Both the position numbers and the translations under genes were made by a program. A stretch of 64,000 nucleotides of DNA from Catajapyx aquilonaris (lineage: Eukaryota). Positions 910 through 64,000 of this stretch are shown here, one piece after another; the stretch's first letter is position 1; every line of letters starts with the position of its first letter. The stretch covers positions 248,001-312,000 of the forward strand of contig KZ537999.1 in assembly GCA_000934665.2 (NCBI GenBank), in the 5' to 3' direction. Below the pieces are notes generated by a model, which was given only the letters and a program-made list of their open reading frames with translations, did not search any database and was not told where the DNA came from.

Positions 910-3900
910 ATGGCTTCGGCGAGTTCACCCATGTTTGGAATCGACCTGGGCACTTCCGAGTCCAGAATCGCAGTGTGGAAGGATGGACAAATCCAGGTTA
1001 TTCCTACCGTGAAAGGACAACTTTATACACCCAGTTACGTCACTTTTACTGGCCAACACATTTTAGCTGGAGACGACGCCAAAAACCAGGTTAGCATGCT
1101 GGTTTAGCTTCAACTTTCAAGCAGTTCATGACCTGCCGGTTTCAGGTTTCAAACCCGGAAAACACTGTGTTTTACGTCAAGCGTCTGATTGGAAGAGATG
1201 GCGACGGCACTCTACCAGGAACCACCAAATTCCACTGGCCATTTCAAGTCTCGATTATTTCAAGAGAGGCACATATGGTGGTAAGAAAAGGCGGAAAGTC
1301 GGAAACGTACAGTCCTGAACAAATCATGCACACTGTGCTGGATAAAATGCTGAAAGATGCCAAGATGTTCATGAACCTCGAAGTGAACCGCGTCGTAATG
1401 ACTGTTCCCACTTATTTCAACGAGGACCAACGAGAACGAGCAACAATGAATGTGGCTAAAATGGCCAAAGTCAACTTGATTCATGTGATCGACAGCAGCA
1501 CAGCGGCTGCCCTTGCTTACTGCTTCAGAAAGAACCTGAAGGACGCGGAGAACATCTTGGTGTACGACATGGGCACATATGTGTTCCAGGCAGCCTTGCT
1601 GAACGTGAAGGACCTCAACCCGGAAGTGGTTGCTAGCGATAATTTCCATAATCTAGGAGGCAGAAACCTGGATCAAGGTCTGCTGTCGCACTGCTTCGCT
1701 GCTATTATGAAGGACAGTAAGTTAGACTTGAGGAATGACATCGAGGCCAGATGGAAGTTGTTCCCAGCTTGCGAGGAAGCTAAGAAAAAATTGTCGTTTC
1801 AAAACGAGACGATTATCCGAGTTGATAATCTCTGCAAGGACTATAATTTCAACTTCAAGGTATTATGTAAAGCCTATACTTTGTATAGCTGTGGATATGT
1901 TGTCATAATATTATTGCCCTCTCGCCGTTCCAGATATCTCGACAAAAATTCGAATCACTCAGCTCAGAAGTGATTAAGAAAACTCTCAGCGTAGTGGGAG
2001 ATGTATTGTCGACGGCTAAGGTTGAAAAGAGCAAAGTAAAACACGTGGTCCTTGTGGGTGGTTCCTCACGAATACCCAAGTTGAGGGAGGTGGTAAAGGA
2101 TTACTTTAATTTGAAAGAGTTGGACCACTTCATCGACCCAGAGGAAGCAATCGTGTATGGAAGTGCTGTGCAAGGTGCACTTCTGAACAAAAGCATAAAA
2201 ATCGAAGATATGAGGAAGGTTTGTTAGTGCGGTACCGTACCTTTGCCTAAGCATCGAAAGTTTTTTTTCTCGGCAATATATGATTTTCAGATGAGTTCAG
2301 AAAATAGGCAACCACATGTGCCCAATATTCCAAAGAGCAACATGCCCGGAAGAGGACCAGCTGTGGGCATAGATTTGGGCACCACATGTTCGTGCATTGC
2401 TGTGTGGAAAGAAGGCCGTGTAAACATATTGTTCAACGACCATGGTAATCGAGTGACGCCAAGTTACGTCTCGTTCACCGAAGAAGAGAGGCTTGTAGGA
2501 AACCCAGCCAAGCAACAGGTCAGATGCTGAGTAAATTTGAGACTTAATTTCGTTTAAATGAATGCATATTTCAGATGCTAATGAAGCCTGAGAACACTGT
2601 GTTTGATGCAAAACGACTGATTGGGCGTACTTACAATGACCCTGAAACTCAGAACGACATTAAATCCTGGTGTTTCCGGGTAGTAGATGAGGCTGGTAAA
2701 CCCCGCATTGAAATTAAATACCAGAGAGGGAGGAAAAGGTTTTATCCTGAGCAAATAAGTTCAATGGTTCTGGCCTATTTGAAGCAGACAGCCGAGTCTG
2801 CTTTGAGAACAGAGGTGACCGACGCAGTGGTGACCGTACCTGCTTACTTCAACGACGCCCAAAGACAAGCGACCAAAGACGCGGCACAGATAGCTGGTCT
2901 GAACGTCCTCCGAATAATAAACGAACCGACAGCAGCAGCCATTGCCTACGGATTGGAAAACAAGGCGATGGAAGAGCGTACAGTCCTGGTGTACGATCTC
3001 GGAGGAGGTACATTCGACGTCACTGTTCTGACCATCGAAGACTTGACCTTCAAAATCAGGTCGACATGCGGAGACACCCATTTGGGAGGCAGAGACTTTG
3101 ACAACCGAATGGTGGACTTTTACGTCAAAATGTTGAAGACGAAGCAAAATACGGACATTTCAAGCGATCGCAGGGCCATGCAACGACTGCGTGTTGCGTG
3201 CGAGGAAGCGAAAGAAGCGCTCTCAAGTAGCACGTCTTCATACGTCGTTGTGGACAACATTTGCAATGGAATTGACTTAAACCATAAGGTGTGCTTTAAA
3301 AAGGAAAGTCACCATTTTAATAACGTCTCTTTACTTTCTTGCACTTTATTTTGCAGTTGACAAGAAACAGGTTCGACGACCTCTGTTTGAGCCTGTTTCG
3401 AAAGACGTTGGATATTGTACAACAAGCTCTTTCTGATGCAAAAGCAGACAAGAAGGACATTCATGACGTGGTTTTGGTTGGCGGTTCCACTCGCATACCA
3501 CGGATACAGGCCATGGTCAAGGAGTTTTTTAACGGAAAAGAACTCTGCAAGAATGTTCATCCTGAGGAATCGGTGGCCATCGGAGCTGCTGTTCAAGCCG
3601 CTGTCCTCAATGGTGGTCCCAAAGACCCTCGAATTAATAGAGTGGCGCTAGAGGATGTGATCCCGATGTCTCTTGGGATACAAGCCGAAGGACATAAAAT
3701 GGTGCATATCCTTAAAAAGAACACCATGATTCCCTGCAAAAATTCAAGGATGTTTACAACAGTTCAACACGACCAGAATCTAATTCCCATACGTGTGAGT
3801 AATACAGAATGTTGTTCAATTTGCTACAAATCATTAAACTAGTTTTGTCAACAATATGTTAGGTTAGTCAATGTTTATTCTAAGCTATATACTATAACAG

Positions 3901-4422
3901 TTAATATTTTTCCAGATATATGAAGGGGAGAACGACGAGACGGAAGAAAACAACTTTCTGGATTTATTTACCTTGAGTGGCTTATCTCTGAAACCTGCAG
4001 GGGTCCCTAAATTTAGGGTGACGTTTGAAGTTGACGAAAATGGCATTCTCAACGTCACCGCAGTCGAAACCACGTCAGGCCAAACTAACAAAGTAACCGT
4101 TACAAATTCAAGGGTACGATTCAGCCAAGAGCAGATTGAGCAGATGAGACGGGAAGATGAGAGACTCAGAGAAGCAGACAGAAAAAGAAAGGCTCAACAA
4201 CTTGCCAAGAGTGAATTGGAAAAATACATATTCTCTGCCAAGGAAGAATTGGAAAGCACATCTGCTGTTAAAGCCAGTTCAAAAGTACAGATGAAGCGCA
4301 TGAAAGAAAAATGCCTCTCGCTATTGGATTGGATCGAGGAAAACCCACTGGCAGGAAAGGAAGTGTTTGAGAAGAAATTTGACATGTTTAAGAAAGAATG
4401 GTTGAATTTTAAGCGTAAATAA
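910..4422 (+). CDS. Locus A: double-NBD HSP70 fusion (altered NBD + near-canonical HSP70, ~1021 aa, no EEVD)
   Basis: Exons 910-1089, 1146-1859, 1934-2218, 2291-2518, 2575-3288, 3357-3794, 3916-4422; all introns GT-AG, phase 0. Two GIDLGT motifs and two VLVGGS[ST]RIP motifs. The second NBD has IINEPTAAA and DLGGGTFD. A 72-nt intron (2219-2290) joins ...EDMRK to MSSENRQ...GIDLGTT in frame. Confidence 0.8.
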
Positions 4423-4604: not shown

Positions 4605-7151
4605 TTATTGCTTTATTATTATGCCCAACTTATTCGTCACATTTTGCACATTTGCTTTGAACTCATCCAGCTTAGAAATAAATTCACTTTCTTCGGCCAG
4701 CTCGTTGTCGTCAATAAAGTCTAGAACCATGGCGCACTCATTCGTCACCTCTTGCCTCTCCTTTTGAGGCAGTTTGTCACTGCCCAATTCTTCCGCCGCT
4801 TGCTTCACAGTGTACGCATAATTTTCCAGAACCATTTTGGCCTCGTCTCGTTTTCTCCTTATGAGGTCCATGTCGCGAAATTTTTGCAGGTCTCCCTTCA
4901 TATTTAACATTTCGTCCCCTTGATGATGGGTCACCGTATAGTGCCTTTCGCCAACCGCTGCTTCTGAAGATTTGATATCCAAAATTCCGTTGGAATCCAC
5001 CCTGATCACCAGTTCAGTCATACCATTTGAATAATTATTGCGGGTATTGACTGATTTTTTGGGGTCTTCTACCTGTAACAATATTGAAGCGACCTAATAA
5101 TAATGCGCAAGTAACAAAATGTCAAAGTGTAATAATATTATTAGTGTGACAGATTCATAAAGGTGCTCCACTGCTCCTAATTGCTAACACTGCGAGCGCA
5201 AGCACCATACGAAGCAACCAACATTGAAATAGTCATTTTTGTAAAGCAAATCATGTTACTTACACGTACTGTGACGTCCACAAGTTTCCTTCCTACATTT
5301 TTGTTTGTAGTGATTTGACCGTAGCTAATCCCCGCGTTTTTCTCAAAGATTTGCATGATCCCTTTGTTAAAGTTTATATCCAGATTTAAACTGACCTCCT
5401 CACTCTTCAAGCTCTTATTGCAGTACAACACGACGTCCGAATTGCTTGGAAGTCTCTGGCAAGCAGTTAAGTCGATGAAGTCGTCATTTCTAATGTCGTT
5501 AGTTAAACATTTGGAATAACAACCCAGCTGCTCTCGCGTCATGGCTGCAACTAACCTGTACTGATTAGGATCATTTTCCGTCTCCGCAAAATGACCTGCC
5601 CAGGAATTTACAGGGCTGACTATCCTGTTGTCTACATCTCCAATCACCGCAGTTTCCTTGCAAGTGTCATTTTCGTTATTTGGAAATGAAAAGCTGTGTT
5701 CAGTTATTATCGATTCATCCACAGACTTCGCATCCATTTCTTTCGTGGCCTCGAAGCTACTGTCAAAAAGACTGGTTTTTCTCAAAGGATAAGCCAATGA
5801 TTCAATAATTTCGGTTTTTTGGTAGGGCCCATAGAGAGTGCTGGGCACTTGGTTTGCAACATGTCCGCCAACAATGGCCGCCCCACGGGCAACCGCTTCC
5901 TGAGGGTCTATGCACTGGTCCAGCTCTGTCAACTGGAAGTAATCCTTCACCATCTCTCTCAACTTTGGTATTTGGGTTGACCCACCAACCAGGATAACGT
6001 GCTCTATTTGACCTCTTGTTACATCGGCTTTTCTTAATGCACGTTCCACTACACTCAACGTGGTGGAGAAAGTGTCGATGCACATCTCCTCAAATTGATA
6101 CCGAAAAATCTGTGGATATAAGACAAAACTGAGAAAATTAAAAATGGCAGCAGTAATATATTTCTTTGCTACAATTCGTAAGCAAATAATGTAATAGTAC
6201 AGTGTATACCTTACGTGTGAAATTGCGGTTCTGGTAGAGATTGTTAACTTGTATTGTACTCTCATCTTGATAAGACAATGTTTTCTTAGCATCCTCACAG
6301 GCTGGGTAGAGTTTCCAGTGGAGCTTAATATCACTCGAATCCACATTATGATATTCCCGAATTATTTCCAAGCAATGTGACACTAGGAGTCGATCCAGGT
6401 TTATGCCTCCCAGATTAATGTTATTGTCGTATGCAACCATTTCCGGAATAAAATCCTACACCTTCATCACCGACACTTCGAAAGTGTATGTTCCCATGTC
6501 GTAAACCAGCACAAGACAAGTATCCTTTAGCTTTTTCTCGTAGCAGTAAGCAAGAACAGCCGCAGTAGAGTTGTCTATGACACGAAGAAGATTGATTTTG
6601 GCAATTTGCGCCACCTTGTTCGCTGCTTGATTTCGTTGAGCCTCGTTGAAATAATTAGGAACAGCCATCACAGCGTCGGTAGCATCGAGACCGAAGAATA
6701 TTTTCACATACCTCAGCATTTTTCTCAGCACAATAAACATAATGTATTCTGGACGGTACTTGTTGACCTTTCGATCATTTTCAATTGAAATTCGTGCTTC
6801 TCCATTATTAATCGACACGTGAAACGGCAAGGTCTCATTACGCTGACTAATCAGACGCCTCACATCAAAGATGGTATTTTTCTGGTCATCTCCAATCTGT
6901 AATGAGAAACAAAATGTCACGTATCACATAATTCGTTTAATAATAGAAAAAAGAGCAAACCCAACCTGTTTCTTGGCTAACTGTCCGATGAAAACTGTGT
7001 CTCCCATGAAAGTTACGCAGCTGAACATGAAGCGTTTCTCCCTATTGTAATAGTTCGGAATCAAATGCACATTTCCATTTTCCCAGGCCGCAATTCTGGT
7101 CTCAGAAGTCCCCAAGTCGATTCCAAGCACTGGAAATATCGGAGGTTCCAT
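4605..7151 (-). pseudogene. Locus B: altered-NBD HSP70-like gene with in-frame TAG
   Basis: Exons 7151-6966, 6896-6210, 6109-5264, 5072-4605. Motifs [27 protein letters not shown]. Reads VMKV*DFIPEMVA with TAG at 6456-6458, where paralogues read NVKD[LF]xPE. Confidence 0.8.
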
Positions 7152-7775: not shown

Positions 7776-10400
7776 TTACAGGTTTGGATGTAACAAAGGT
7801 TGGAATTTCTCTTTGATTTCTTCCAGCTTTGCTTCGAATTCGGTTTGGCCACACTCTTTGCTTTCGTCTATAAAGTGTACCATTTGATCACACTCATCCT
7901 TCATGAACTGCTTATCATTTTCGGACAATGTGGATTCTTCTTCCAACTCATGCTTCACGAAGTACACGTAGCTTTCCAACTCAGTTTTGGCCATGTCTCT
8001 ATTCCTCCTAACCGATTCTGTTTCGCGAATTCTGTTCAGCTCTTTCTTCATTTCTGAAAGGTTAGTTTTCCTTAACTTCTCCGCTTCGTTCTCGGTGATT
8101 ATGCTGAAGCTTCGGTCGGGCAGAATTTCGGCTGCTATCACGTCGACAATTCCACTGACATCGACACTGCAAGTGACGTCTCTGATTTTCTTCAAGCGAT
8201 TGCCCTCGTCCAATGCTGAGTCTCGTATTAGTTCCTGAAACTTAATGGAAAAGTAAATACAGGCTAACACTGTAAACATTATTTTACCACATAGACGCAC
8301 AGACCACATATTATGCGTGTATTAGACTTACAGGTAAAGTGATGTTTAACAGGCCTTCTCTGCTCTCGCACTTAATGCTGTTGGAAGAAATCCGCATCTT
8401 ATCCATCCCAATGTTCAAAACTCCTCCAGTATACTTTACATCCAGAGGTAAACGTCCTTTATTACTCTCACTCCTGATTCTGCTGCTTTGGTCAACTTCA
8501 TTATTACTGCTTGTAATTTCTTCCTGACCTGTGCTGATGTCGGCACCTTTGGCTTCGTTGACACTTTCGACTGTCTTGTCACAAACGTCTTTGGAAGTAT
8601 TTTCTGATGGCCTAGTCTCTGTGTTACTGCCATCAGCCATGGGATCTTCCATGAAGGAAATTGTATACTCGTGGAAGGCTGCTGGATCTTGGCCCTGTCT
8701 GTTTTCTCGAAGCTGAACATTTCCGTCACCTTCCGCGGCCTCGGCTGACCTTTCGTCTGGTACGTCCGTTTCTGGACTTGTCTCCTGTCTGATGTCACCT
8801 TCGGCTGAAGATTGCTCGTGACTGGGAACTGCTTGATATTGGCCCTTCTTCTTCGACTTCTTTCTAGGCCAACGGAGGCAACAACACCCAGTTGGAGAAG
8901 AACCACCTCTTACATCTCCCGTATCGTCTCTGCTCATACTTTTATGCAAAAGACCACCTTGAACAGCAGCCCCGTACACAACTATTTCCTGCGGATCTAT
9001 GCTCTGGTCCAGTTCCTCCAAATGGAAATAGTTCTTCACCATCTCCCTCAGCTTTGGTATGTGCGTCGATCCACCTACCAGGACAACGTGATCTATTTGA
9101 TCTCTTTTTATTCCGGCCTTCGCTAACGCTTGTTCCACTACATCCAGCGTTGCATCGATCAGGTCAGTGCATATTTCTTCTAAATGATGTCGGGAAATCT
9201 GTGGATATGAATAAACAATTAATAAGCAACATTCATGAAGAAGCAAGAGTTCGTTCTTAGCTATCGACTGAGGAATAAGTTACAATACGAGCTGCCTAAT
9301 GGTTGAAATGAAATGGGAAATAAAATTCTTCCCATAAAAATACTGACGCACCTTTATTTATTAACTGTATGGCTTACTGTACCTTGCAGGTAAAGTTGTA
9401 GTTCTTTCCGATATTTTTAATCTCTATAGTAGTCTCATCTTGCGAGGAGAGAGTTTCCTTTGCATTCTCGCAAGCTAGGAAAAGCTTCACCAGCGTGGCG
9501 ATGTCGTTATTCAAATTATGCCTTTTCTCCTGCTGCATCAACGTCAAGCAATGCGACATAAGCCATTCATCCAGATATTTACCTCCAACCTGGATGTCAC
9601 TCTCATGGGCAACAATTTTGGGGTTGAAGTCCTTCACGTTCAGGACGGACACTTGGAATGTGTATGTGCCCAGGTCATACACCAGAACAAGACCAGGGTC
9701 TTTAAGATCCTTTTTGAAGCAGTAGGCAAGGGCAGCAGCAGCGCAATCGTCGATGACTTGAAGTATGTTGATCCTGGCTAAGGCTGCAACCTTGCTTGTT
9801 GCTTGCTTTCGTTGGACCTCGTTGAAATATGTTGGCACCGCCATTACTGCACTGGTCACTTTGACACCCATAAATTCCTGAGAATCTTTCAACATTTCTT
9901 CTAGCACCCAGAAAAACAGGCGTTCTGGATGATATTTTTGAGTCTTTCCTCTTATCTTCACTTTAACATATTCTTCTCCTTTGACAGCAGATACTGGAAA
10001 CGGCCACTTATTTTTGCTGATTTTTGCAAAGGGGCCGTCATTGCCCCGCACAATGAGGCGTTTCACGTCAAAGAAAGTGTTCTCCGGATTGTAGATCATC
10101 TGTAAAAGAATAATTATTAAAACGTGCTTGTACAATCAGAGCCGGATCAGAGATACGCCGTATTAAAATCATATCGTCTTCTGGGACAGTTACATGGTAG
10201 GAATGCAAAATAACCTTTTCCTTGGCGAAGTTTCCGACATAAGTGGTAGTATCTGCGCACAAGACGTAACTGGGTGTGAAATGTTTTTCTGTGTCGTAGT
10301 TGCTGGGAATGAGCTTGACAATTTCGTCCTTCCATACAGCTATTCTGGACTCCGACGTGCCCAAATCTATTCCAAACACTGACGTCACCCCATACGCCAT
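7776..10400 (-). CDS. Locus C: altered-NBD HSP70-like protein with disordered linker, degenerate SBD and lid (~742 aa)
   Basis: Exons 10400-10215, 10099-9383, 9198-8332, 8234-7776. Motifs [34 protein letters not shown]; lid AKTELESYVY. Confidence 0.82.
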
Positions 10401-11879: not shown

Positions 11880-14346
11880 CTATTTCATTCTCGAGTACTC
11901 CTCCAGCTTCAATTGTTGGGATTCCACTTCGCTCTTATCCGCGTACTCGTTGGACTCTAACCATTCCAGCACCTCTTCGCATCTCTCCATCACCGCCTCG
12001 TTATTGGGCAAGTTTCTAACATTCTGCTTCAAATCATGAACATATTCTTCCAGGTTGACCCTTGCAGTGGCCCGATCCCTCTTCTTCTGGTCTTCCTTGC
12101 AGAATTTCTCAGCATCACTGATCATCTTCTCTATCTGTGCCTGGCTGAGCCGGCCCTTCTCGTTTTGGACGGTCACGTTGTTGGTGATTCCAGTGGACGT
12201 GTCCACGGATGTGACAGTCAGGATTCCATCCACGTCAATGGTGAAAGTGGTTTCAAGTTTAGCTTTGCCCCTGGGAGCAGGATGAATGCCCATGAGATTG
12301 AAGGAGTCCAGAAGGTTGTTGTCCTCGGTCATGGGCCGCTCACCCTCGTATATCTTGAATAGGAAATGGGTTCAAGTGTAGTATAAAATAAAGGACTGCA
12401 GATGGTCTTATGGGATTTACCTTAAAGTCCACTCCTATTTGATTGTCTTTGCTGGTTGAAAACGACCTTGCCATTTCGCAAGGTATTGGGGTGTTCCTCG
12501 GGACTACCACGGACATCATTCCTCCCACTATGTCGACTCCTAGAGACAAAGGGGTCACGTCCTCCAGCAGCACCTCGCTGATGTAGTTGGCGTCCTCCGC
12601 GTCTGTGATGTAATTCTCCTGTTCCGCATCTGTCATGAAGTCACTGAAGTTTCCACTGATAGCCACTGCTTCTATGGCAGCCCCGAAGGCAACAGCTTCG
12701 TCCGGATGTATGCTCTTGCACGGCACTTTTCCTCCGAAGTAATCAGTCACCATCTTACGTATCTTGGGAATACGGCTCGATCCTCCGACCAAAACGACGT
12801 CGTCGATCTGACTCTTGTCCAGCTTGGCGTCCTTCAACGCTGATGCGACTCTGTCCATCGTCTTTCGAAAGAGGTCCTTGCATAGATCTTCGAATTTGGC
12901 TCGGCTTATCTGTTGGATATGTCAGAGAAAGAAGGTACTGCCTGTTGTAATATTCACGAATGTTGTAATTCATCTAGAAAAACTCTTGGGCTACGTGTTT
13001 AGCAGCTGATCGTTGCAATATTATTATAAGCGAATATACAAGATATTGTTTTAACAAAGCAGTGGCAGTGATCAGGATAAATGCGCAGCTTATATAGCAG
13101 GAATTTTCCAGTGTGTATCTAAATAGAATTTATAAGTTAATAGGTGCGCCTATAGTACCAAATAATTAATGGGGCCGCTGTGGGTCTTTACCCTGGAGTT
13201 TTAGCAAATCACCTATCATCGTACACAACAGTAACGTCCTCTGGCGAAAGTTCCAATATATAAAAAGATCCCTATTACTCTTGGGACGTGCTTAGGACAC
13301 ACTGAAAAATTATACACACCCTTTGAGCAAAGTCGATATTACTGCAAATGTTGTCCACTATCACAGGAGCCTCATTCACGCTCGACAAGGTCCTCTTGAC
13401 CTCCTCGCAGGCGGTACGGAGACGTCGCAGTGACTTTGGCTCTTTTGTGAGGTCTTTACCATGAGTCTTCTTGAACCCTTTGACAAAGTGGTCCAAAATA
13501 CGATTGTCAAAGTCTTCTCCTCCCAGATGGGTGTCTCCATCAACTGATAGTACTTTCAGATGGGGGCCCTTGATGGTCAGCACTGAAACGTCGAATGTTC
13601 CTCCTCCGAGGTCGTACACCAGGATGTTGTTGGCCTCCTTCAGCTTCTTGTCCAATCCGTAGGCCAAGGCTGCTGCTGTCGGCTCGTTTATTATTCGGAG
13701 GACGTTCAGACCAGCGATCTGTCCAGCGTCCTTCGTGGACTGTCGTTGGGCGTTATTGAAGTAAGCAGGTACCGTCACCACTGCATCTGTCACCTCCATG
13801 CCCAGGTATTTTTCGGCCGATTCCTTCAGACTGCCCAAAACCATGGCGCTAATCTCTTCAGGGTGGAACCTTTGCTTTAATCCATCGTGCTTGACCTCTA
13901 GGAGAGGTTTATTTTTCTCATTTACGACGCTGAAGTTCCACAGCTTGATGTCGCCTTGGACCAGGGGGTCGTCGTAGGTCCGACCAATAAGGCGCTTTGC
14001 ATCGAATATAGTGTTTCTCGGGTTCACCGCCACCTACAACAAGATAAGGCAGGAGATCATTAACCTGAATGTCCTTTTCATGCTTACGTATTCACTGCAT
14101 TAATACAAGTACATATGGAGTAGCACTAAATCGCACGACAATTTTATTGGTTACGGTACTCATTCTCACCTGCGCCTTGGCTGCGTCTCCGATCAGTCTC
14201 TCTGTCCCAGTGAATGCGACGTAACTAGGTGTCACCAACTTTCCATGCTCGTTCGGAATGATCTGAACCTTTCCTTTCTGCCAGACACCCACGCAGGAAT
14301 AAGTGGTTCCCAAATCTATCCCAATAACTGGAGCTTTTATGGACAT
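11880..14346 (-). CDS. Locus D: near-canonical HSP70 family protein (~617 aa, no EEVD)
   Basis: Exons 14346-14170, 14033-13320, 12909-12421, 12353-11880. Motifs [61 protein letters not shown]. Confidence 0.9.
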
Positions 14347-41965: not shown

Positions 41966-43059
41966 GGTGAGTGCCAGAAGATTGATATTAATATTAATAT
42001 TAAATGTGTCACTCACGCAGAGGCGAAGTGAGCGAGTTTCTTGTAAATGGAAATATAATCAAGGCACTTTTGTGTAATATTATTGTATGTGAGTTCTGTA
42101 CAATATTATTTTGTGTGAGTTGTGGCACACACTTGACAACTATACCACAAGAGAAAAATTAATATGAGCCTCCTTGTGTATATATGCCTGGGTTTATGTC
42201 ACCCAATTGAGTGTTGCATGTCCATTTGCACTCATGGAGAGAAGGAAGCTGGACTATACATGAAGGTTACATGAAAATGGTTATTTCATATAGCCTGCAT
42301 ATAACTTATGATGTTGCATTGGTTTATAGGATTTTATTGTAAAATTACGTACCAAATGTCGAAATATTTCACAAATACGAATACTTCAGTTTTTTTTGCA
42401 TTTGTGTGTGTGGCATTTTAGGATTGGGGGAACTCATTTTCTCACAAAATTTCTTGATCACTTAGGTTCAATACAACAACACGTAGCCAAAATCACAGTC
42501 GTCATCAAAGCTACTGGTTGTGGTTTATTAGCGAAAATATGCTCCTAATAATTTTCCTCAGCTTCGACATTGGTAACCTGACTCCTCTTTCTCTAAAGTT
42601 ACTCTTTATTTTGCTGTCGCAATTAGTAATTCTAACTCCACTTATGTAACTCCGTGTGACTGTAATATCGATCCTTTGTTGCATGCTTTGTTGTGTCTCA
42701 TTTCACAAGCCCTGCACATGCACAGTTGTACTAACGTGGCAGTATTAATCAATAAAGACATGGAGGGAAGTGCCACTTATTCATTTAATACCGGCCCTGC
42801 TTTTGTTTACCTTCCTCACTTTCAGAAGAGTGCAGAATGAATATTATTAATCTCGTGGAGAAAAAATGTCTTCGACGACTGATTAAGGTAGCAGAATGGT
42901 GGTTTCAGCTAGGCCATGGGACTTTAAAATAATTCAGGCGAGGGAAGAAGGTAGTGCGCTCCCTCTGGCAGACAGCTTTTCACCACCACAATAATTATGC
43001 AACTTGTACAGTACAGTACTGATTTTCGGTATGCTAATGCATATACGTGCTGGATGCGT

Positions 43060-43170
43060 GGATAAATGTGAGGAGGTGCTGGAATGGCGTGAGTTCAACA
43101 AGGACGCGGATGCGAAGGAAGTGGAGTCCTAACAATGGAAGTTGGAGAGGGAGTACTCCAGGATGAAATA
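43060..43170 (+). pseudogene. Relic of an HSP70 3' end (D/E-like)
   Basis: Translates as KCEEVLEWREFNKDADAKEVES*QWKLEREYSRMK*, matching the D C-terminus [34 protein letters not shown]. Confidence 0.78.
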
Positions 43171-48600: not shown

Positions 48601-48898
48601 TGTGTCAGAAATGCGGAAAGAACTGCAGACATTTCGGGACAAAGAAGTGACGATTAAAAATAGGGACGTGGCCAAAACAAATTTGGAGAACTACGTGTAC
48701 AAACTGAAGCAGGCCGTGGAAGACGAATCAGTTGGCACTAAAGTGTCGGAAGAAGAGAAGAAACGAGTGAAGGACGAATGTGAACGAATGTTAGACTTTC
48801 TGGATGAAAACGACATGGCCGAAGAAAGCACATTTGTTTCTGCGCTGCAAGCGTTCAAGAAAATGTTCCGACCATTGGTTCGGATTTTGATAAAATAA
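45676..48898 (+). CDS. Locus M: altered-NBD HSP70-like protein with ~350-aa disordered linker, degenerate SBD and lid (~934 aa)
   Basis: Exons 45676-45858, 45916-46632, 46780-48246, 48461-48898. Motifs [63 protein letters not shown]. Confidence 0.83.
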
Positions 48899-50043: not shown

Positions 50044-50418
50044 ATGGGGTCTATTTCGCAATACTTTTTGAGCAAAGCGAGAGGATGTTACGAATATTTT
50101 GTTGGCTTATTGTATCGCATCAGAAAAAGGAGCCAAGAGTCAGAGGAAAACAGGAAGTCCTCTTTGGATCATGACCACCGAGAGAGCAGTCTTACCAACG
50201 AGCAACGAACAAGTACGCCCCATGAATATCATCGTTCATACGTCAATCGCACATCAGATAAGCACCAGAATACTGGCCCCAACAGAACAGAAAGGATCCG
50301 AAACCAGGACGACAAAGGTGCAAGATCGGATTCTGCTGATTCTGGGGAAGACATTTTTCAATACAGACGTTCCTATCCCAATTCAAGTGCACAATTACAT
50401 GGTAATCAGTCCCGCTAA
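50044..50418 (+). pseudogene. Locus N: truncated paralogue of NBD-less locus O (linker only, 124 aa)
   Basis: Ends FQYRRSYPNSSAQLHGNQSR* versus O FQYRHSYPTSSAQLHDNQPRKG; upstream 49275-49438 resembles 51124-51235. Could alternatively be a real small protein. Confidence 0.6.
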
Positions 50419-51393: not shown

Positions 51394-52576
51394 ATGGCAT
51401 TTGTGTCAAATTTTTTTACTATTAAAGCAAAAGTAGCAGTAGATTTTTTTAACAAAGCAAAAGAAAAATTTGAATCATGGTCGGATATATTGGATGGTAC
51501 AACAGAGCCTGTATATGGTGTGGTATACAGGAGTTGTCCTTTTCATTATGTCTTTGTTGAGAGAAGTACCCATCAACAACGTCCCCCTTCCCAGGATTAT
51601 CGTAGCTGTTACGTCCAACCCACATCACCACGACCGGATGACCACCAACAACGTCCCCCTTCCCAGGATTATCATCACAGCTACGTCCAACCCACATCAT
51701 CACGACCGCATGACCACCAAAATCTTCACACTTACAGATTAGAATTTGCCCAAAGCAATGCCAACCAAGGCAAAAGACCGAGTTCTGCTCCTGCTGCTAG
51801 AGAGAACCATTTTCAATACCGACATTCCTACCCCACTTCAAGTGCACAATTGCACGATAATCAACCACGAAAGGGATGTTTATCTCTCTTCATAAATTAC
51901 AAGGCAGGCATATTAAAGATTAGCACAAAAAATCTCCAAAAGCCCTACAAAAACATCACGTACGCTAATTGTAGAGGAGATCCTGCCAGAATCACTTTGC
52001 CTGTAAGTATAATTTCACGTTTTATAATTAATTACATTTACGGGACAAACATCGTCACATCAGCGACATGCATGACCATAAACTCACTCTAGAACCTAAA
52101 CATTAACAATAATGTAACTTTTATTGTTGCAGGTTGACTACCTCACATCGTCCCGTAGCACTGATGACATAATTTTCAGCGTCGACGCCAAATGTTTTCT
52201 GGACATAAATGTTCGCGGGACATCTGGCGTTACAAGCCTGTGCACAGACGACAAAGCCAGGGACAGGAAACTGGCTGAAATGTGGAATGTGCTAGACACG
52301 TTTCGAAAAAAGGATGAGGTGAAGAAAAAGAAAGATGCAGCCAAAAGATACTTGGAGTCTTTCATTTACAACCTGAAGCAGGCCATGGAAGGAGCACCAG
52401 AGGATGTTCTGCCGAAAGGACAGAAGGAGGAAGCAATTAAGAAGTGCAATAAAATGTTGGACCTTCTAGAGGAATGTGACAATCTGGAAGACGAAATGTT
52501 CAAACGTGAGGTGGAAGATTTTAAGGCAACGATGGTACCCCTAATGGAAAAGTTAGGGCGTTCCTTGAATCAGTAA
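51394..52576 (+). CDS. Locus O: NBD-less HSP70 derivative (repeat linker + degenerate SBD + lid, ~350 aa)
   Basis: Exons 51394-52002 and 52133-52576. Motifs LFINYKAGILKI, IIFSVDAKCFLD, AKRYLESFIYNLKQ. Confidence 0.77.
51571..51720 (+). repeat. 72-bp coding tandem repeat (2 copies of a 24-aa unit)
   Basis: HQQRPPSQDYRSCYVQPTSPRPDD / HQQRPPSQDYHHSYVQPTSSRPHD. Confidence 0.93.
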
Positions 52577-53223
52577 TTGGGGGGCAGCAGGAATCTGCTA
52601 CGACAAATGTTTCATCCAGCGAAATATCATAATATTGTAACTATTATATAATTTTCTGTCAACCGCATCATTAACCAAATAAACAGATTGAGGTAACATT
52701 ACAAGCAGAGGGATATTATTATTTTTAAACATGCCTGTCTCAGTATCTTCCAATCAAGTTTTCCTACAACCAGATATATAAATCCATAATTATATACAGC
52801 TGGACAACAACGTTTCCGGCGATTCCATGCTTCTCAGTCGTTACAAATACGACCCAGAATAATTTACGTACTGTACCGGTACGTTATGTAACATATTTTG
52901 CAGTAGATGGCGACACTCCTGCACCAAGGCCTCTTAGAATAGATTGCAGTCAGATTAAGTATGATTAGTTGCTCTACAGGTGATCAGTGAGGATAAAGCA
53001 AAAGGTACGAGCTCGCCCATAATGGCCACATGACCTTCCCTTTTCTATTTGCAACTCGTTTCAAATCTAACAGCATTTGACCTTGTCATAATATGAAAAT
53101 ATCATAAATGGAATATCAATGTGAATATTGTTTGCATGTTGCAGAAACAACGAGCCATAATAAATAGTTGAAAACCTATACAAATGAATTCAATCATATA
53201 CTAACTGCATGAATATTAACAGG

Positions 53224-54954
53224 ATGACCGAGACAAGAGCGATTGGGATCGACCTGGGCACCACCTACACAAGGGTGGCAGTCTGGCACGAAGGTCAGGT
53301 CAAGATCCTTCCAAACGATCACGGAAACCAAGCAACACACAATTACGTCGGCTTCAACGACACGTCAGACAGGCTGGTTGGTGATCCCGCAAAAAAGCAG
53401 GCAAGCAACGTCTCAACAATTGGCAAGGCCTTTTATTTGACGCCTTATTTTGACAATTGCAGGAATTTTTGTACTCGAAGAGCACCGCTTTCGATTTCAA
53501 ACGCCTGATAGGTCGCCCTTCAAAGGATATCCTCACAGAAAGCGACAAACTCAAGCGGTTCTGGCCATTTGAAGTGGAGGACAGGGACGGTTACTCGGCA
53601 GTCAGTGTAATATACGACAAAAATGAACGATGGTTTCACACAATCACAATGACAGCCATGATACTGGAAAAGATGAAGGACATCGCTACAGATTTTTTGA
53701 AAGCACCGGTGGCCCACGCATTGGTGACGGTACCAGCCTCTTTCAACGACGTCCAACGACAGGCGACGATCGACGCTGGACGTGTCGCCGGATTTGAAAC
53801 TGTCCACCTTATAAACGAGCCAACATCAGCCGCTATTGCCTACGCAGTGGACACCAGACTTCAGAAGAAGAGCAACGTCCTTGTGCTCAGCATCGGAGGA
53901 GGATCACTTGATGTATCGGTGGTCGAAATACAAGGACTGAACATCCAGGTGTTGTCCACTGTCGGAGATCCATGCATGGGAGGAATGGACCTCGACATTA
54001 GTCTAGCAGAGTACATTATGAATGAGGATAAAAGCATCCCGATTGACCAAAACGATACAAAGTCGCTAATGAAGGTCCGTAACGCTTGCGAGAAGGCAAA
54101 GCAGAATTTGTCACTAATTAAAGAGACTCGAGTGGAAGTGGATGGCCTGGAGGGAGGGAAAAATTACACCACCACGGTATGCATCATGACACATTTTTAC
54201 ATTTCTTATCTGCATGAAATAATGACATTGTCCGTCGCTGGCTACCCCATCATTGGGACAGTGCCGTGATGAATGTAATAAAACAATGCATGAGTCGATT
54301 TCATTTCAGATTACGCAGGACACGTTTGAAGAAGTGTGCAAGGACTTCTTTGTCAAAACTGAAGGACTAGTTAAAGAAGCTCTCGAGAAGACTGACCTGC
54401 AGGAAACAGATATCGACGACGTGCTTCTTGTGGGTGGGTCTACTTACATCCCCAAAATACGACAGATTATTCCAAAAGTGTTTGGCGGTAAACAACATTG
54501 CAAGAGCGTACATCCGGAGGAAGCAGCCGTTTGTGGAGCTGCAATGCAAGCAGCGGTTGCCATCAACAAAGAGAAGAGTGAACGAATCAGAGACCTGGTC
54601 GTCGAGGATATAGTTCCTCTGAAGATGCGTGTTGTCATTACTGAAGGACAGATCACCATCGAAATGATTCGTGATTCGAAAATTCCATTTGCAGACAAGT
54701 TGGACCACATTAAGGTGACTTCTGCACTTTAGACGTTGTGACCATTATTTTTAAACACATCCCATTTCACAATTTTTTGACAGGAAGGGAAAGATGAAGT
54801 CACCTTGGATTTACGGTCTGAAAGACATGGCGTACCACGTGGTGAACCTGAGCTTCAAGTGACAATAAACACGGATGAACAAGGAGTCCTCACTGCCAGG
54901 GCCAGTGCATCAGTTTTTGGTCAAAAGAAGACGATCAGAGATATTACGTTCTAA
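53224..54954 (+). CDS. Locus P: lid-less divergent HSP70 (NBD + shortened beta-SBD, ~488 aa)
   Basis: Exons 53224-53400 (GC donor), 53463-54176, 54310-54714, 54784-54954. Motifs [37 protein letters not shown]; last exon [25 protein letters not shown]...DITF*. Confidence 0.82.

Positions 54955-55485: not shown

Positions 55486-55547
<62 letters not shown>
55486..55547 (+). repeat. (CTA)n microsatellite
   Basis: Directly visible. Confidence 0.97.
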
Positions 55548-57746: not shown

Positions 57747-58312
57747 ATGGGACCAGCTGTGGGCATAGATTTGGGCACCACGTGTTCCTGCATCGCCGTG
57801 TGGAAAGATGGCAGTGTTAAGATACTCTTCAACGATCGTGGAAATCGAGTGACGCCAAGTTACGTCGCGTTTGATGGAACTGACAGACTCATAGGAGAGG
57901 CCGCCAAAAAACAGGTCAGGCAATGGTTTTGGGTGCATTATCTATACAGAAAAATGTTTGCAATTATTTTTAAACCCCCTTTTAAATAGCTCAGTGATTA
58001 CAGCCTTTTTCAAAATTGCAGATTGTGTTGTCACCTGAAAACACCGTGTTTGATGCCAAGCGCCTGATTGGTCGCAAATATGATGACCCCCACGTTCAGC
58101 ATGACTTGAATTCCTGGTCTTTTCAAGTAGTAAACGAGTCTGGGAAACCCCGTATTGTAGTCGAGTATCAAGGTGGAAAGAAGAACTTTAATCCCGAGCA
58201 GATTAGTTCCATGATTTTGGCTCATTTGAAAGCAACAGCTGAGTCCTTCCTAGGGACCAAGGTGACCGACGCGGTGGTGACAGTTCCGGCCTATTTCAAC
58301 GACTCCCAAAGA

Positions 58313-58344
<32 letters not shown>

Positions 58345-59967
58345 TCTGAACGTCCTGCAAATTATCAACGAACCCACAGCAGCAGCCATTGCTTACGGAT
58401 TGGAAAACAATTCGAAGGAAGAGAAAAACGTGTTGGTTTACGACCTCGGAGGAGGAACCTTTGACGTCACTGTGCTGACCATCAAAGGCCTGACCTTCAC
58501 TGTCAGGTCGACAAGCGGTGACACCCACTTGGGAGGGAGAGATTTTGACAACATAATGGTGGATATATGCGTCGATATGCTGAAGAAGAAGCACAAGAAA
58601 GACATCAGAGGGAACCACAGGGCCTTGCAAAGACTGCGAATCGCCTGCGAGGAGGCCAAGCAAGCTCTGTCTAGCATTGATAACACAGACGTTGTAATAG
58701 ATAACATTTGCGATGGAGTCGATTTAAAACACAAGGTGTATATCAAAGAATTTAGACTAATGGCCATATTATTACCACATATAAGTTGTTATTCCGGCCA
58801 TTAAAATATATGAATTTATTTCAGATGTCTAGACTCAAATTCGAGGACCACTGCCTACCGCTGTTTAGAAAGACCTTGGAGATTGTGAAGAAAGCTCTTT
58901 CTGATGCCAAACTAGAAAAAAAAGACATCCATGACGTTGTTCTGGTTGGTGGTTCCACCCGCATCCCAAAAATACAGGCCATGGTTAAGGATTTCTTCAA
59001 CAATAAAGAGCTCTGCAGGAATGTCCATCCGGATGAAGCCGTTGCAGTTGGGGCCGCTGTTCAAGCCGCTGTCCTTCACGGTGACAACAAAGGTAACCTC
59101 ATAAACGAAGTGGTGCTGGAGGACGTGCTTCCCATGTCTCTTGGAACCGAAGTGGACGGGCACATCATGAGAGTGATTTTACCAAAAAACAGCAAAATAC
59201 CATGCTCAGAATCCAAGCTATTTACAACATTTCGTGATCAACAGGATAAGATCAACATTCGCGTAAGTATTGCTGCTGAAAATAATGTTGCTTGAGTAAA
59301 GCCGCTGAACCTAACTGTACTATGGGCGCCAAAAGAATTGACCGGAGTTGATGGGTATATGGCGCTATATACCCATCAACTCCGGTCAATTCTTTTGGCG
59401 CCCATAGTACAAGTTGCAGCCATGAAGAGGCTATATGTTGGTGCAACTCATCCATTATTTTTGTAGGTCTTTGAAGGCGAGAATGAGGAGGCGATGGACA
59501 ACAACCTGCTAGATTCATTTGAACTGACAGGCTTTCCTCTGCAGCCAAAAGGAGTTCCCAAGTTCAAAGTGACCTTTGAAGTTGACACAAATGGCATTCT
59601 GAGCGTCTCCGCAGTTGACACAGCGATGGGTATAAAGAAGTGCATAAAGGTCACGAATGCAAGAGGACGATTCACTCAAGAAGAGATTGACAAGATGAAG
59701 GCTGAGGATGAAACACTCAATGAAGGGGCGAGAAAGGGTAAAGAGCGAGACACAGCCAAGTCAGAATTGGAATCTTACGTCTATTTTGTGAAGGAGAAAC
59801 TGCAGTGCATGTCTACTGGATCGGCTAGTCGAGAAAAACGAAAAGATGCTCTGCTAAAAAAGTGCATTGATCTCCTTGACTGGCTGGATGAGGGTGAAGT
59901 TGCGGACAAAAAAACATGTGAAGAAAAACTGCGCATATTAAAAAAGGAATGGGAAAAATTTTCATAA
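57747..59967 (+). CDS. Locus Q: near-canonical HSP70 family protein (~606 aa, no EEVD)
   Basis: Exons 57747-57914, 58022-58735, 58825-59262, 59467-59967. Motifs [54 protein letters not shown]. Most similar to the second half of loci A and G. Confidence 0.9.
59316..59411. mobile_element. Perfect palindromic MITE-like foldback in intron 3 of Q
   Basis: 45-bp perfect arms (59316-59360, 59367-59411) with a 6-nt loop GGCGCT; TA flanks around CTATGGGC...GCCCATAG. Confidence 0.75.
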
Positions 59968-60420: not shown

Positions 60421-62232
60421 TCGTCTTCACAACCGCCTCCGCGCTTACCTAGAACATTTTCGTGGGGGGTCGAACTTGGGGGAGGAGGGAGAGGGGAAGG
60501 GAGGATAGTTTACTTTTTACAACACCGCGCTGCCCCCCTACGGAGGATAATGTTACAGAAAATAAAAAAGCTAGAAAAATTTTATTGGCCTAAAGTATTG
60601 CCTTCCGGAAAAGCTTTCTGTCATCGTCATTCACAAAATGTTATATGACGAAACCCTTAAATTCAGTTCCTTTGGCTATACAGATAAACATGTGGCTACA
60701 TTACATTAGGCTGTACAATACATGTCATTGGCTTCTTCGGTACAAGTTAATAAATTATTGTTCAAATGACCTCGTAACTGAGACGAATTAAATTTCACGA
60801 TGTTTGCACTTACAAGGTTATAGTGTATCTTAAAAGTTTGCCAAACAGACATAATTTTCCTTCATTGTCGTGAGGAAAATGTCCTTTAAAAAGTGTAATA
60901 TATGCTGCCCCCGTTATGTTGTAACTACAGTACCGTATATTGAACCAGAAATTTCTCAGAACGTACTGATTTCCTTATTAATAATTAGTAGGGGACGTTT
61001 TCATTCAAGTTTTTATTTTGTTCGCAGATTTGTTCACTCTTGCGATAACAGTCATGTTGGTGAAGTGTTTAATCTGACATATCCAGCTCACAATGAGAGA
61101 CAAGTGATATCGGGTTTAAAATATGACAGATATGCCTATGTGTTAAGAAAATGTCCCAATAATATTGAGGTCTAAAAATGAAAGCACAGGCCATTTTGAA
61201 TTTTTCAATGCATAATTTTCTTTCTACATTGTTGCAGAACCTTTTTTCTTCATAAAAACTCAAGAGTTGTAATTAACAATTTTTCCTCAAATGATTGTGT
61301 GTTACATAAGATAACTTCTGTATACAGTGTACACGTGAATCAAGTCTGAATTAAGCTGATAAGATTGTATGGTTTTAAGTTAGCGCCCATCATGATAAAA
61401 TCACATTAGAAGGTGAATATGAGAGTGATAACTCCTCCATTTAAAGAACTTCAAGGACAGCCGAAATTGGAAAATAATACAAAAGTTGATTGTCCAATAA
61501 GCGAATGATAAAGTGATAGCTTGAAATGTAAGGTAATGCTCATTTCCTAAGAGTTTTGCACCGGCACTTACTTCTTGGTCATTTTGACGGGATTTAATAC
61601 CCTGCTGGACACACAAGCAAGGAAGAGTCGCAACTATGCAGTATGTTCATGATGTAAGTTGTTCTTTACCTCTTATGTAAACAGGAGAAAATGGAAGAGG
61701 TGAATTAAACTGTTTGGTATACATTATTTATATTCTCTTACACAACAGTAAACCTAGTTAGGATTTATCATAATATTATGTAATCCATTGGAATCGCCAT
61801 TGTATGTCTACGTACTTCCATACGTAATTAGTGATAAGTTATCATTCGTTGAAGGCAAGTGGATTGGGTACGCATCCTGTGCATATGTCCTGTCAGCTTC
61901 ATTCCTGGAGTTATTTAGTGGGTGTTATTACAGGATTTATCAATTATTCAAGCAGCGTGAAACACTCTCACATCAGCATGTCCTGCGGGTCACACCTCGT
62001 GAGAGAGTAAGTTCGAGCAAACATTGAACACTTGGTTATAAAACAGAGAAGTTATGATTTTTATTATGAACTATGAACATTTCTTTCCCACATGTGTTTA
62101 TAATATTCATAAGAAAGCTATGTATTCTTCGTGGTTAGGATAATAAAAATGTTAAATATTTGCACTATTTATAGGTGAAACCACGGAAAACACTCATTGG
62201 ATTTCTAATAAGACTGAAGAAGGATATTAGAA

Positions 62233-64000
62233 ATGGGAGCAGCTCAGAGTAGGATAAAATCCGGAAAAGGTGGCCACAATATGAAAATATTACCTGAGGA
62301 CAAGAAAAATGAGGATTCAGGGGTTTTCCTAGACGGGGGATTCAAATCTGTCGTTTGAAATGCATAATTAAATATGGCGGATCCAATATGGCGGATGAAA
62401 TAATAGAAAACTAATCACATTTGACTGAAAATGTTGAATTTAGGGGTTTTCTTAGACACGGAATTGAAATATGTTGTTTAAAATGTATAATTAAAGGTGA
62501 CGAATCCAATATAGAACACAGCTTAACGTGAAACTAATGAGACTAAAAGAAAAACTGCTATTTTGGGGTGCCCAAGAGTAGGGGTTCTTATTTTGAAAGA
62601 TCCCCGGTTTCATCATATTCCGGTCTTGGTCAAACTTTCCCTAAGGATTGGGAGGCATTCCTCCGAACCGTTTAGCATTCTACATCAAATTAAAAATAAA
62701 AGCAGGAAACAAGTTTGCGCTCTCACGTCGCCACATAATCGGAGCTCATGTCAGGATTAGTATCGTAATTGCTTACAACAATTACTGAACTTCCAGATAT
62801 TTCTTATGCTCTGCGCTTGGAACATTGTTCATTGTGTTGAAGAGTTTCAACCTTGCAAACTATAGCCCTCTGGAAATGAAGCACAATTTCGTAAGCCTAT
62901 CGGCGGGGTAAATTGAGAAATCGCGCAACAGCGTAATGTAATAGAAAAATATGATGTGGGGTGGGGGAGAAGGCAAATGCAGATTTAGCTCCCAAACGGA
63001 CACGTTCGAGCACCCACTTCCAACTAAAAAATATGAAGGTATAAAGAGAGGCCTTTCGCAATTGCAGTTGACCTGGAAATACCTGACGCCTCATATTTTC
63101 CTCGAAATTGATTTTTTTACATGACGCAATTGCCGACTCTGAAAGTCTGCCACTTCGAGTTAATTTTGACAAAACTCTGATCGTTTTACCCATTAATGTT
63201 TTTAAATGTAGCTCATACCCTTATACCTACTGGGTCCAATCTCTTTCCCTGCACTTTGGTGCACCTATACATAATGGGAAATGACATTTTCCAAACATCG
63301 TCACGAGCACATGACTTGTGTTTGCACTTAGCTTTTCCGCCCCATGGGTGCCATTTTTGCCAGGTTTATTATGGAGATACGACGTGGATTCGTGTAAACG
63401 TCATTTCTGTAGCAGGGAAATGTCAGGAATCAATCAAAGAATAAATTATGTTTTAAATCCCACCAACTGAAAAAATTGAATTTGGCCATGTTTTTCACGT
63501 TCTGTCCTACTGTGCAGCTGTGGGCATAGATTTGGGTACCACGTGTTCCTGCATCGCCGTGTGGAAGGATGGCAAGGTTGAGATACTTTTCAACGATAGT
63601 GGAAATCGAGTGACGCCAAGTTACGTCGCCTTTGATGGAACTGACAGGTACATAGGAGAGGCAGCCAAAAAACAGGTCAGTTATCTATAGAGAAAAATGT
63701 TTGCAATTATTTTTGAACCTATTTGAAATAGCTCAGTAAGTTATTCCAATCCATGAGATGATTGATAGTGATTACAGCCGTTTTCAAAATTGCAGATTGT
63801 GTTGTCACCTGAAAACACCGTGTTTGATGCCAAGCGCCTGATTGGTCGCAAATATGATGATCCACACGTTCAGAATGACTTGAATTCCTGGTCTTTTCAA
63901 GTAGTAAACGAGTCTGGGAAACCCCGTATTGTAGTGGAGTATCAAGGGGGAAAGAAGTACTTTAATCCCGAGCAGATTAGTTCCATGATTTTGGCTTATT
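62233..64000 (+). pseudogene. Locus R: duplicate of Q, interrupted after codon 4 by a transposon; continues beyond the window
   Basis: ATG GGA GCA GCT at 62233-62244; resumes GTG GGC ATA GAT TTG GGT ACC at 63520-63675; exon 2 from 63796 ([17 protein letters not shown]). Confidence 0.82.
62245..63514. mobile_element. Non-autonomous Transib-like DNA transposon
   Basis: 5-bp TSD CAGCT (62240-62244, 63515-63519); imperfect TIRs CAGAGTAGGATAAAA...TGGCCA and CACAGTAGGACAGAA...TGGCCA; absent from the paralogous site in Q. Confidence 0.75.

Follow-up and report, generated by a model that had tools for sequence, protein, structure and literature searches.

HSP70 proteins are among the most conserved proteins known. 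What, then, is to be made of a locus in which HSP70 genes with a complete ATPase site stand among relatives that have a degenerate ATPase site, that lack the nucleotide-binding domain (NBD) altogether or that end before the lid of the substrate-binding domain (SBD)? Such a locus is found in a stretch of 64,000 nucleotides from Catajapyx aquilonaris (GenBank assembly GCA_000934665.2, contig KZ537999.1, positions 248,001 to 312,000; the whole stretch is called the window in the following, and all coordinates refer to it), which carries on its two strands 16 HSP70-derived gene units and two relics. In our view, which we hold with moderate confidence, the array is an old, lineage-restricted tandem family that goes back to a single cytosolic-type HSP70 gene and in which most members are working genes. 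Neither chance nor decay would be expected to produce an array as orderly as this.

The loci were mapped with tblastn against the whole window, on both strands, using a spider HSP70 (P0011) and our own gene models as queries; the models were obtained with a purpose-written intron-aware protein-to-genome aligner and with four RNA-supported exon junctions. PF00012 (Pfam) matches the exon open reading frames (ORFs) of the array, and the window is eukaryotic DNA (about 37–50% G+C, one N). An earlier reading of this DNA from its letters alone (the sequence-only reading) had counted 16 loci plus a relic. The model-based search gave the same number of gene units, but there are two relics, one of which (N) had been listed as a gene and is merely a fragment.

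Do the members have one ancestor? The gene structures argue that they do. Exon 2 has a length of 711–717 nt in eleven loci (711 in F; 714 in A1, A2, D, E, J, P, and Q; 717 in C, K, and M) and of 687 nt in B, as had been noticed from the letters. Relative to the reference protein, intron 1 comes after residue 58 (phase 0) in 13 of the 13 modelled NBD-bearing loci (in K it maps to residue 59) and intron 2 after residue 297, also in phase 0, in 12 of 12. Five canonical-type loci extend as far as intron 3, which comes after residue 442 in these and after residue 444 in P. The intron preceding the last exon is common to B, C, F, K, M, and O and is shifted by one base in I; of the three loci thought to be NBD-less and to share this pre-lid intron, O and I thus have it, N having no lid exon. 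Each full-length member has three to four introns, and A1, I, O, and R, which is cut off by the end of the window, have one or two. Of the 40 modelled introns 38 are of the GT-AG type and two, intron 1 of K and intron 1 of P, are of the GC-AG type.

A maximum-likelihood tree was calculated for 12 NBDs from the window and 20 sequences from outside; I and O (no NBD), R (length), and G (chimera) were left out, and the tree holds no Hsp110, HSPA12, HSPA13, or HSPA14 sequences. The 12 NBDs form one clade (UFBoot 99, SH-aLRT 98) inside the animal cytosolic HSP70s (99/97) and apart from BiP and DnaK, with 100% bootstrap for each of the subclades (A2,Q), (J,(D,E)), (K,P), and (M,(A1,(F,(B,C)))). This single clade and the common intron positions and phases bear out the proposal of the sequence-only reading that all members descend from one local ancestor; for the atypical members, the introns and the clade that they have in common with the competent genes beside them argue for a local origin as well. 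The branches are long: the stem of the altered class (M, A1, F, B, C) has 1.15 changes per site and the K branch 1.19, as compared with about 0.1 for the tips of the outgroups. The sisterhood of K and P is supported, independently of branch lengths, by the GC donor that both have in intron 1 (GCAAGC at 38243/38242 in K and at 53400/53401 in P), where all other copies have GT. The GC donor is a derived character common to the two.

The ATPase motifs were read from the alignment to P0011; the residues, for which we take the numbering to be D10, K71, E175, D199, G201–T204, and D206, were checked on that protein. Three types of NBD can be distinguished. In the first, all catalytic and phosphate-binding positions are kept. 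To it belong A2 (2291..4422, plus strand; 611 amino acids from the ATG at 2342, with an alternative ATG at 2291; four exons), D (11880..14346, minus strand; 617 amino acids), E (16470..19042, minus strand; 657 amino acids), J (32904..35822, plus strand; 608 amino acids), and Q (57747..59967, plus strand; 606 amino acids). E is a recent duplicate of D (exon 2 dS, synonymous changes per site, 0.21), and R (62104..64000, plus strand) is a recent copy of Q (dS 0.10), of which the first 121 residues lie inside the window; these retain D10, the first phosphate loop, and K71. The near-canonical set of D, E, J, Q, and R thus stands as motif-complete, for R as judged on its 121 residues, and A2 has to be added to it.

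In the second type the ATPase motifs are changed, as had been stated before and as the alignment to P0011 confirms. In A1, B, C, F, and M the TTYS stretch is altered to TSES or TSET, the catalytic glutamate E175 is lost, the second phosphate loop GGT has become T-Y-(T/V/A), and D206 has been replaced by Q or E, and these class-specific residues do not vary among six altered exon 2 sequences. By its gene model and motifs A1 (910..2227, plus strand; 395 amino acids, three exons) consists only of such an NBD and the linker, ending with a TAG at 2225–2227. The others are B (4605..7151, minus strand; 728 codons), C (7776..10400, minus strand; 744 amino acids, intact), F (22192..25475, plus strand; 696 amino acids in five exons, with a 43-nt and a 60-nt intron predicted by homology only), and M (45676..48898, plus strand; 934 amino acids), which has the longest insert of all.

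K and P represent a third type of NBD, in which D199 and T204 are both replaced by S and the ATPase site is thus partly retained. K (36103..38422, minus strand; 685 amino acids in five exons) continues with a retained linker, an insert, a degenerate SBD, and a lid. It had been placed in the altered class, which is right with respect to insert, degenerate SBD, and lid, but its NBD groups with that of P and not with those of B, C, F, and M. In P (53209..54954, plus strand; 493 amino acids) the linker is normal, the SBD-beta is short, and the protein ends before the lid; P had rightly been described as lid-less, and it appears to be a mosaic. Its exon 2 is nearest to that of K (52% identity) and its later exons are nearer to the canonical copies. 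In a quick tree of the last exons K falls with the altered lids (100) and P with A2, Q, and G (99). Short tracts of 80–88% nucleotide identity join paralogues that are otherwise saturated; those within exon 2 (2812–2972 versus 13636–13796 and 18358–18509; 37646–37990 versus 53660–54004; 81–88% identity) join paralogues with an overall dS of about 1–1.4 and are candidates for gene-conversion tracts. These tracts, the last-exon grouping of K and P, and the affinities of the P exons make some gene conversion or exon-level exchange likely; as the last exon of P is short and sits on a long branch, the mosaicism of P is suggestive only.

What follows the NBD in the altered members? D and Q have the domain composition of canonical cytosolic HSP70s, PF00012 extending across NBD, SBD-beta, and lid: exon 2 covers profile positions 53–298, exon 3 positions 293–434, and exon 4 positions 435–592. 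In the altered class Pfam matches only positions 293–384 and 461–596, that is the end of the NBD and the lid, and in B, C, F, K, and M there is no Pfam match at about 385–460. The SBD, considered missing in the altered and NBD-less members by the sequence-only reading, is nevertheless there in degenerate form: a profile-profile alignment over 199 columns (E 8.6e-35) shows collinearity between the canonical SBDs and the C-terminal module of B, C, F, I, K, M, and O, and a conserved motif before the last intron maps onto SBD strands 1–4. It was also considered that this motif is an internal duplicate of strands 7–8 (E 7e-4, probability 26%), but this was rejected, the whole module being collinear with strands 1–8 plus lid. 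The order in the altered architecture is thus pseudo-ATPase NBD, long insert, degenerate SBD-beta, and lid. I (30920..32213, plus strand; 364 amino acids, two exons), with a basic, probably disordered insert, and O (51394..52576, plus strand; 350 amino acids, two exons) consist of the same C-terminal module without an NBD.

The insert is located at the interdomain linker (in K just after it), before SBD strand 1; it has a length of roughly 85 to 350 residues, is rich in serine, acidic, and basic residues, and is likely to be disordered. In the pseudo-ATPase members it takes the place of the hydrophobic linker, with about 100–350 residues. A short motif, (L/F)-H-(E/Q/T)-Y-(R/K/T)-(L/I/M), occurs in the inserts of B, C, and O, twice in that of I and twice in that of M, and nowhere else in the models; outside of it the motif-bearing inserts cannot be aligned. 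O contains in addition looser Y-R/H-S-Y variants within a 72-nt tandem repeat (51570–51720). The inserts of C, I, and M have basic patches resembling nuclear localization signals (NLS). A role of the motif or of the patches, including one in nuclear targeting, can at present only be surmised from the sequence. A search of a protein atlas with the C insert gave no usable match.

Are the non-canonical members expressed? Evidence on this comes from X5, a small run from the same organism and another study, whose kind is not on record but which behaves like RNA; the comparison was confined to bases 1–20000, within which locus A has no cover. (No run on record as RNA contains 11800–19100.) X5 contigs join 5072 to 5264 in B, 8240 to 8332 and 9198 to 9383 in C, and 12353 to 12421 in D (its intron 3), always with GT..AG on the gene strand. 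None of the four joints is found in the DNA run X1, and all coincide with introns that had been modelled independently by homology. B, C, and D are transcribed and spliced. An X5 contig (6212–6490) also spans the in-frame TAG of B (6458–6456) and does not differ there. It had been pointed out that the reading of the array as a system would fail if its non-canonical members were untranscribed; for bases 1–20000, spliced RNA-like contigs exist for two such members, B and C.

The coding sequences are constrained. The ratio of nonsynonymous to synonymous changes per site (dN/dS) in exon 2 is 0.08–0.28 in pairs of canonical copies, 0.18–0.51 within the altered class, and 0.35 for K and P, and in the last exon 0.21–0.69; dS of exon 2 is mostly above 1, D–E and Q–R being the exceptions. 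Every pairwise value is thus below 1, and the neutral outcome (a ratio near 1), which the sequence-only reading had named as speaking against itself, was not observed for any class. No pair has a dN/dS above 1, either, but it should be noted that a pairwise measure would miss episodic positive selection. In neutral simulations with 0.1–0.3 changes per site none of 300 runs kept any of four ORFs of 685–934 codons open; the shorter ORFs of I and O stayed open in two of 300 runs at 0.1 and in none of 300 at 0.3. The dN/dS values and the simulation indicate that the non-canonical members were kept by selection for most of their history.

Not everything in the array is intact, however. G (26400..28911, plus strand) had been taken for a protein with two NBDs. 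It is an out-of-frame chimera: an altered-type exon 1 and exon 2, reaching to 27093, abut a canonical-type copy that begins at 27096 in the middle of exon 2, the frames differ, and the altered frame stops nine codons past the junction. The end of the altered frame in G (27093–27120) and the premature TAG of B (6456–6458) are both about 211 residues in, just past the second phosphate loop, which may be coincidence. Locus A, the second putative double NBD, consists of two ORFs (A1 and A2) in the same frame, split by one TAG (2225–2227). A 72-nt GT..AG interval (2219–2290) with a strong acceptor could fuse A1 into A2; this is a candidate at a locus lying outside the cover of the RNA-like contigs. 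The five reshuffled architectures of the sequence-only reading therefore appear overstated, in that deletion or decay seems to account better than designed fusion for G and perhaps for A. In R the homology to Q begins a few bases inside the coding sequence, and a 5′ end that is 95% Q-like and has the ATG lies about 1.27 kb upstream, exon 1 being split into 62104–62244 and 63517–63675. N (50224..50415, plus strand) resembles the insert of O (49% over 68 residues), no lid exon belonging to it was found in the window, and the NBD-less gene proposed here has to be given up. The second relic (43055..43168, plus strand) is a C-terminal tail of the D/E type (66–68% identity over 33–37 residues). A variant genetic code as explanation of the in-frame stops was rejected: those of J, M, K, and F lie inside introns whose splice sites are good, and only B retains such a stop. 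Also rejected was the idea that the hydrophobic C-terminal extension of E is a tail anchor. The reading frame of E continues beyond the position of the D stop, the read-on is homologous to the 3′ flank of D, and a high-copy repeat abuts the 3′ end of E.

These lesions are what birth-and-death evolution would leave behind, and one may ask whether only the motif-complete copies matter, the others being transcribed pseudogenes or by-products of unequal crossing-over. The in-frame TAG of B, the chimera G, the interrupted exon 1 of R, the two fragments, and the end of A1 right past the linker fit such debris, and the hsp70-like families of tapeworms are likewise reported to include pseudogenes, a transcribed putative pseudogene being cited in a review (PMC4413821). 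We nevertheless consider it improbable that the non-canonical copies are debris, because the frames of C, F, K, M, I, O, and P (350–934 codons) are open despite a dS between paralogues above 1; because in the neutral simulation the four ORFs of 685–934 codons stayed open in none of 300 runs and those of I and O in two of 300 at 0.1 and none at 0.3; because dN/dS is 0.18–0.69 and the splice sites are conserved; and because the class residues are invariant in six altered exon 2 sequences and the short motif is kept within otherwise unalignable inserts.

Several points weigh against the reading of the array as a family of mostly working genes and should be kept in mind. The decay just described is visible in B (whose TAG is also present in the X5 contig), G, and R, to which the fragments N and the relic at 43 kb have to be added. 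The RNA evidence, from one run of unrecorded kind, concerns B, C, and D; on E its depth is faint. The comparison covers bases 1–20000 except A, and eleven gene models are founded on homology alone. With dS saturated, dN/dS can be estimated only roughly, and pairwise values cannot reveal or date the recent death of a copy such as B. The tree has long branches and is without Hsp110, HSPA12, HSPA13, or HSPA14 references. Finally, the scan for heat-shock elements reported next was limited to the textbook consensus and, for promoters, to 500 nt, and promoters may lie further away because acceptor-like CAGs stand just before several of the ATGs.

Is the array a heat-shock cluster? The sequence-only reading had denied this, and rightly so as far as typical heat-shock clusters are concerned. 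Heat-inducible hsp70 genes are recognized by heat-shock elements together with few or no introns; the genes of the array all have introns (one to four), and in a scan for the textbook consensus (inverted nGAAn trimers) no perfect trimeric element was found in 64 kb in either orientation, 1.0–1.3 being expected by chance. Nor are sites with one mismatch enriched in front of the 16 starts: of 23 such sites two lie in the upstream stretches of 500 nt, which make up 12.5% of the window, about three being expected. In addition, none of the 14 complete modelled C-termini ends in EEVD and none in KDEL or HDEL, in agreement with what had been noted before. From the missing EEVD tail and the missing heat-shock elements we infer that A2, D, E, J, and Q (and R, if intact), which have kept a full SBD and lid, would be specialised ATP-driven chaperones, uncoupled from TPR co-chaperones and not under a classical heat-shock promoter. 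The start codons of B, C, D, E, F, G, I, J, and R are preceded, at a distance of 10–50 nt, by pyrimidine-rich stretches with CAG at their end, and the alternative ATG of A2 at 2291 directly follows such a stretch; these stretches suggest introns in the 5′ untranslated regions or spliced-leader trans-splicing.

How could such a family have come about, and what could its atypical members do? Starting from the one cytosolic-type gene, it would have grown through repeated local duplication, divergence, and some gene conversion or exon-level recombination, with ongoing loss of copies. Judging from their motifs, B, C, F, M, and the truncated A1 would be unable to run the ATP-driven allosteric cycle, the ATPase being presumably lost and the two domains uncoupled, and could act as non-cycling binders, adaptors, or regulators via the NBD surface, the lid and SBD, or the insert motif.

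A more specific proposal is that the pseudo-ATPase members act as Hsp110 or Ssz1 do, binding to competent NBDs or to a J-protein as exchange or tethering factors, so that the array would encode a self-contained machine. In Hsp110 and Grp170 the NBD is followed by a beta domain, into which a long insert of acidic or disordered character is set, and by a helical lid; ATP hydrolysis is dispensable for their main activity, and they act on canonical HSP70, Hsp110 being its nucleotide-exchange factor. Exchange by Hsp110 needs bound ATP, however, and the altered NBDs have lost both the catalytic glutamate and the glycines of the second phosphate loop, which makes their binding of nucleotide doubtful. 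The members of the array do not resemble Hsp110 and Grp170 in other respects either: the insert is at the NBD–SBD linker before SBD strand 1 and not inside the beta domain, the nucleotide motifs are degenerate, the introns are those of the local HSP70 pattern, and the solved relatives are Hsc70 and Ssb1. When altered exon 2 was compared with solved structures, the closest were Ssb1, Hsc70, and Hsp70 (E about 1e-42 to 1e-41), Ssb1 being the single best, and among the best 60 of 121 matches all were Ssb1, Hsc70, Hsp70, or an unnamed Hsp70 and none was named Hsp110 or Sse1. By solved matches and insert position the altered members are thus not Hsp110 or Grp170 proteins, a comparison made without Hsp110 sequences in the tree.

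In their logic, atypical HSP70s that serve canonical ones come closest, namely Hsp110 and, in the ribosome-associated pair with Ssb, Ssz1 (HSPA14). Ssb lacks the EEVD motif, and a long linker insert is not known as a feature of Ssz1. A canonical ATP-cycling HSP70 is in this system paired with an atypical one that does not act like a normal chaperone, and the triad of Ssb, Ssz1, and Zuo1 is thus a precedent for co-chaperone-like members of the array (PMC8476630). Competent and degenerate members are indeed adjacent in the window, A1 even abutting A2 in the same frame, and the NBD surface is under constraint. The atypical members differ from Ssz1 and HSPA14 in sharing introns and clade with their neighbours (in a tree without Ssz1 or HSPA14), which argues for a local origin and against descent from that ancient line. 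Taking these points together, we regard a co-chaperone function of the Hsp110 or Ssz1 kind as unlikely.

The sequence-only reading had suggested a sensor or decoy role as in immunity, in which inactive or partial modules partner with active ones. Spelled out, such pairs would detect or absorb pathogen effectors that target HSP70. The tandem array, the lineage-restricted spread, the long branches, the mixture of competent and degenerate copies, and the mosaics P and K are compatible with this but not specific for it. No immune-type domain was found by Pfam among the ORFs of the window, no pair has the excess of nonsynonymous changes that a conflict might leave, and the duplicates are old, only D/E and Q/R being young; moreover, where an active HSP70 is known to pair with an atypical one, as Ssb does with Ssz1, the pair has a housekeeping function (PMC8476630). 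An immunity-like role is in our analysis not favoured and appears very unlikely.

One can go further within the reading of the family as working genes and imagine a closed, co-evolving network, in which EEVD-less competent HSP70s are steered by locally born dead HSP70s and SBD-only proteins, the linker insert with its H-x-Y-R-hydrophobic motif and NLS-like patches serving as a pseudo-substrate or targeting arm. This is speculative and on present evidence rather unlikely, any partnering between members being surmised from sequence; if true, it would mean that duplicated HSP70 genes have here been turned into co-chaperones of HSP70, for a task that may be nuclear or related to conflict.

How does the family compare with known expansions? 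Closest in kind is that of the hsp70-like genes of tapeworms (Echinococcus and Taenia), which is described as a lineage-specific expansion of cytosolic type without the characteristic C-terminal motif, the copies being clustered in the genome, of elevated diversity, and without known function (PMC4413821). Lineage-specific origin, cytosolic type, loss of the C-terminal motif, and clustering are shared with the window; unlike the window, the tapeworm families are, in the portion of that account used here, not said to have NBD-less members or a class in which a degenerate ATPase goes together with a linker insert. The named best matches to queries from the window are not from cestodes (one Mesocestoides protein is among the scattered top profile matches), and the likeness is probably one of kind and not of descent. 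In plants, Hsp70T proteins are truncated cytosolic variants without the conserved C-terminal co-chaperone-binding motif (PMC10687569); they share the loss of the tail with the array but belong to the plant lineage, are not related to it by descent, and are not described in the consulted part of the source as having dead-ATPase or NBD-less forms. Literature searches yielded no description of this set of architectures. By its sequences the family appears set apart from the known systems through its local origin, through the combination of a dead ATP site with a disordered linker insert, and through the presence of SBD-only and lid-less members in the same array.

Database searches agree with the claim of the sequence-only reading that the array is fast-evolving and lineage-specific. 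Among 390 fetched HSP70s, the nearest share only 54–58% full-length identity with even the best members and about 40% with the altered NBDs. The named best matches of E exon 2 are from spiders, ticks, nematodes, and bivalves (62–67% identity), and a word-based search with C exon 2 gave 37–39% as best identity and nothing higher. A profile of the six altered exon 2 sequences, searched against 1.84 billion representatives, found ordinary and double-domain HSP70s from plants, nematodes, a beetle, and a cestode, and the signature of the altered class was present in none of the 149 best representatives that were read (150 were listed). The family thus looks lineage-restricted, although close relatives of the source organism may be absent from the collections. 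Among the profile matches, three proteins from Juncus (P0247, P0249, P0251) and one from Mesocestoides (P0255) have about 1,200 residues and two HSP70 NBDs, one with degenerate phosphate loops; these could be genuine fusions in tandem, or else gene models that were merged.

A local radiation of HSP70 under constraint amounts to an experiment done by nature, from which one may learn what parts of the machine are dispensable and of what the rest is still capable. It offers EEVD-less competent forms, dead-ATPase forms with a linker insert, SBD-only forms, and one lid-less form, that is separable evolved modules for studying NBD–SBD coupling, lid function in trans, and HSP70-derived regulators, and it provides a second independent case beside the unexplained hsp70-like expansion of the tapeworms.

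Apart from the HSP70-like genes the window contains little that can be recognized. Scans with Rfam and for tRNAs gave no match in the window, and Pfam, run on 35 ORFs outside the HSP70 loci, gave only a weak match to Lig_chan (E 5e-4, below the family cutoff). It belongs to the only other recognizable gene, which lies amid the HSP70 genes (39503–41962, plus strand), consists of two large ORFs (312 and 430 amino acids), and resembles ionotropic glutamate receptors but is very divergent. A language-model look-up puts glutamate and ionotropic receptors of arthropods nearest to it, by itself a weak hint at an arthropod source; a word-based search with the 430-residue ORF found no homologue. Very high-copy repeats are located at about 15900–16600 and 19344–20000, where the depth of DNA contigs is about 4,000 and 32,000, respectively, as compared with about 45 elsewhere. 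The spacer between E and F contains a 79-nt tandem repeat (3.9 copies, 20918–21228), and two pairs of direct repeats (88–92% identity; for example, 15099–15520 versus 21377–21817) connect the D–E spacer with the E–F spacer.

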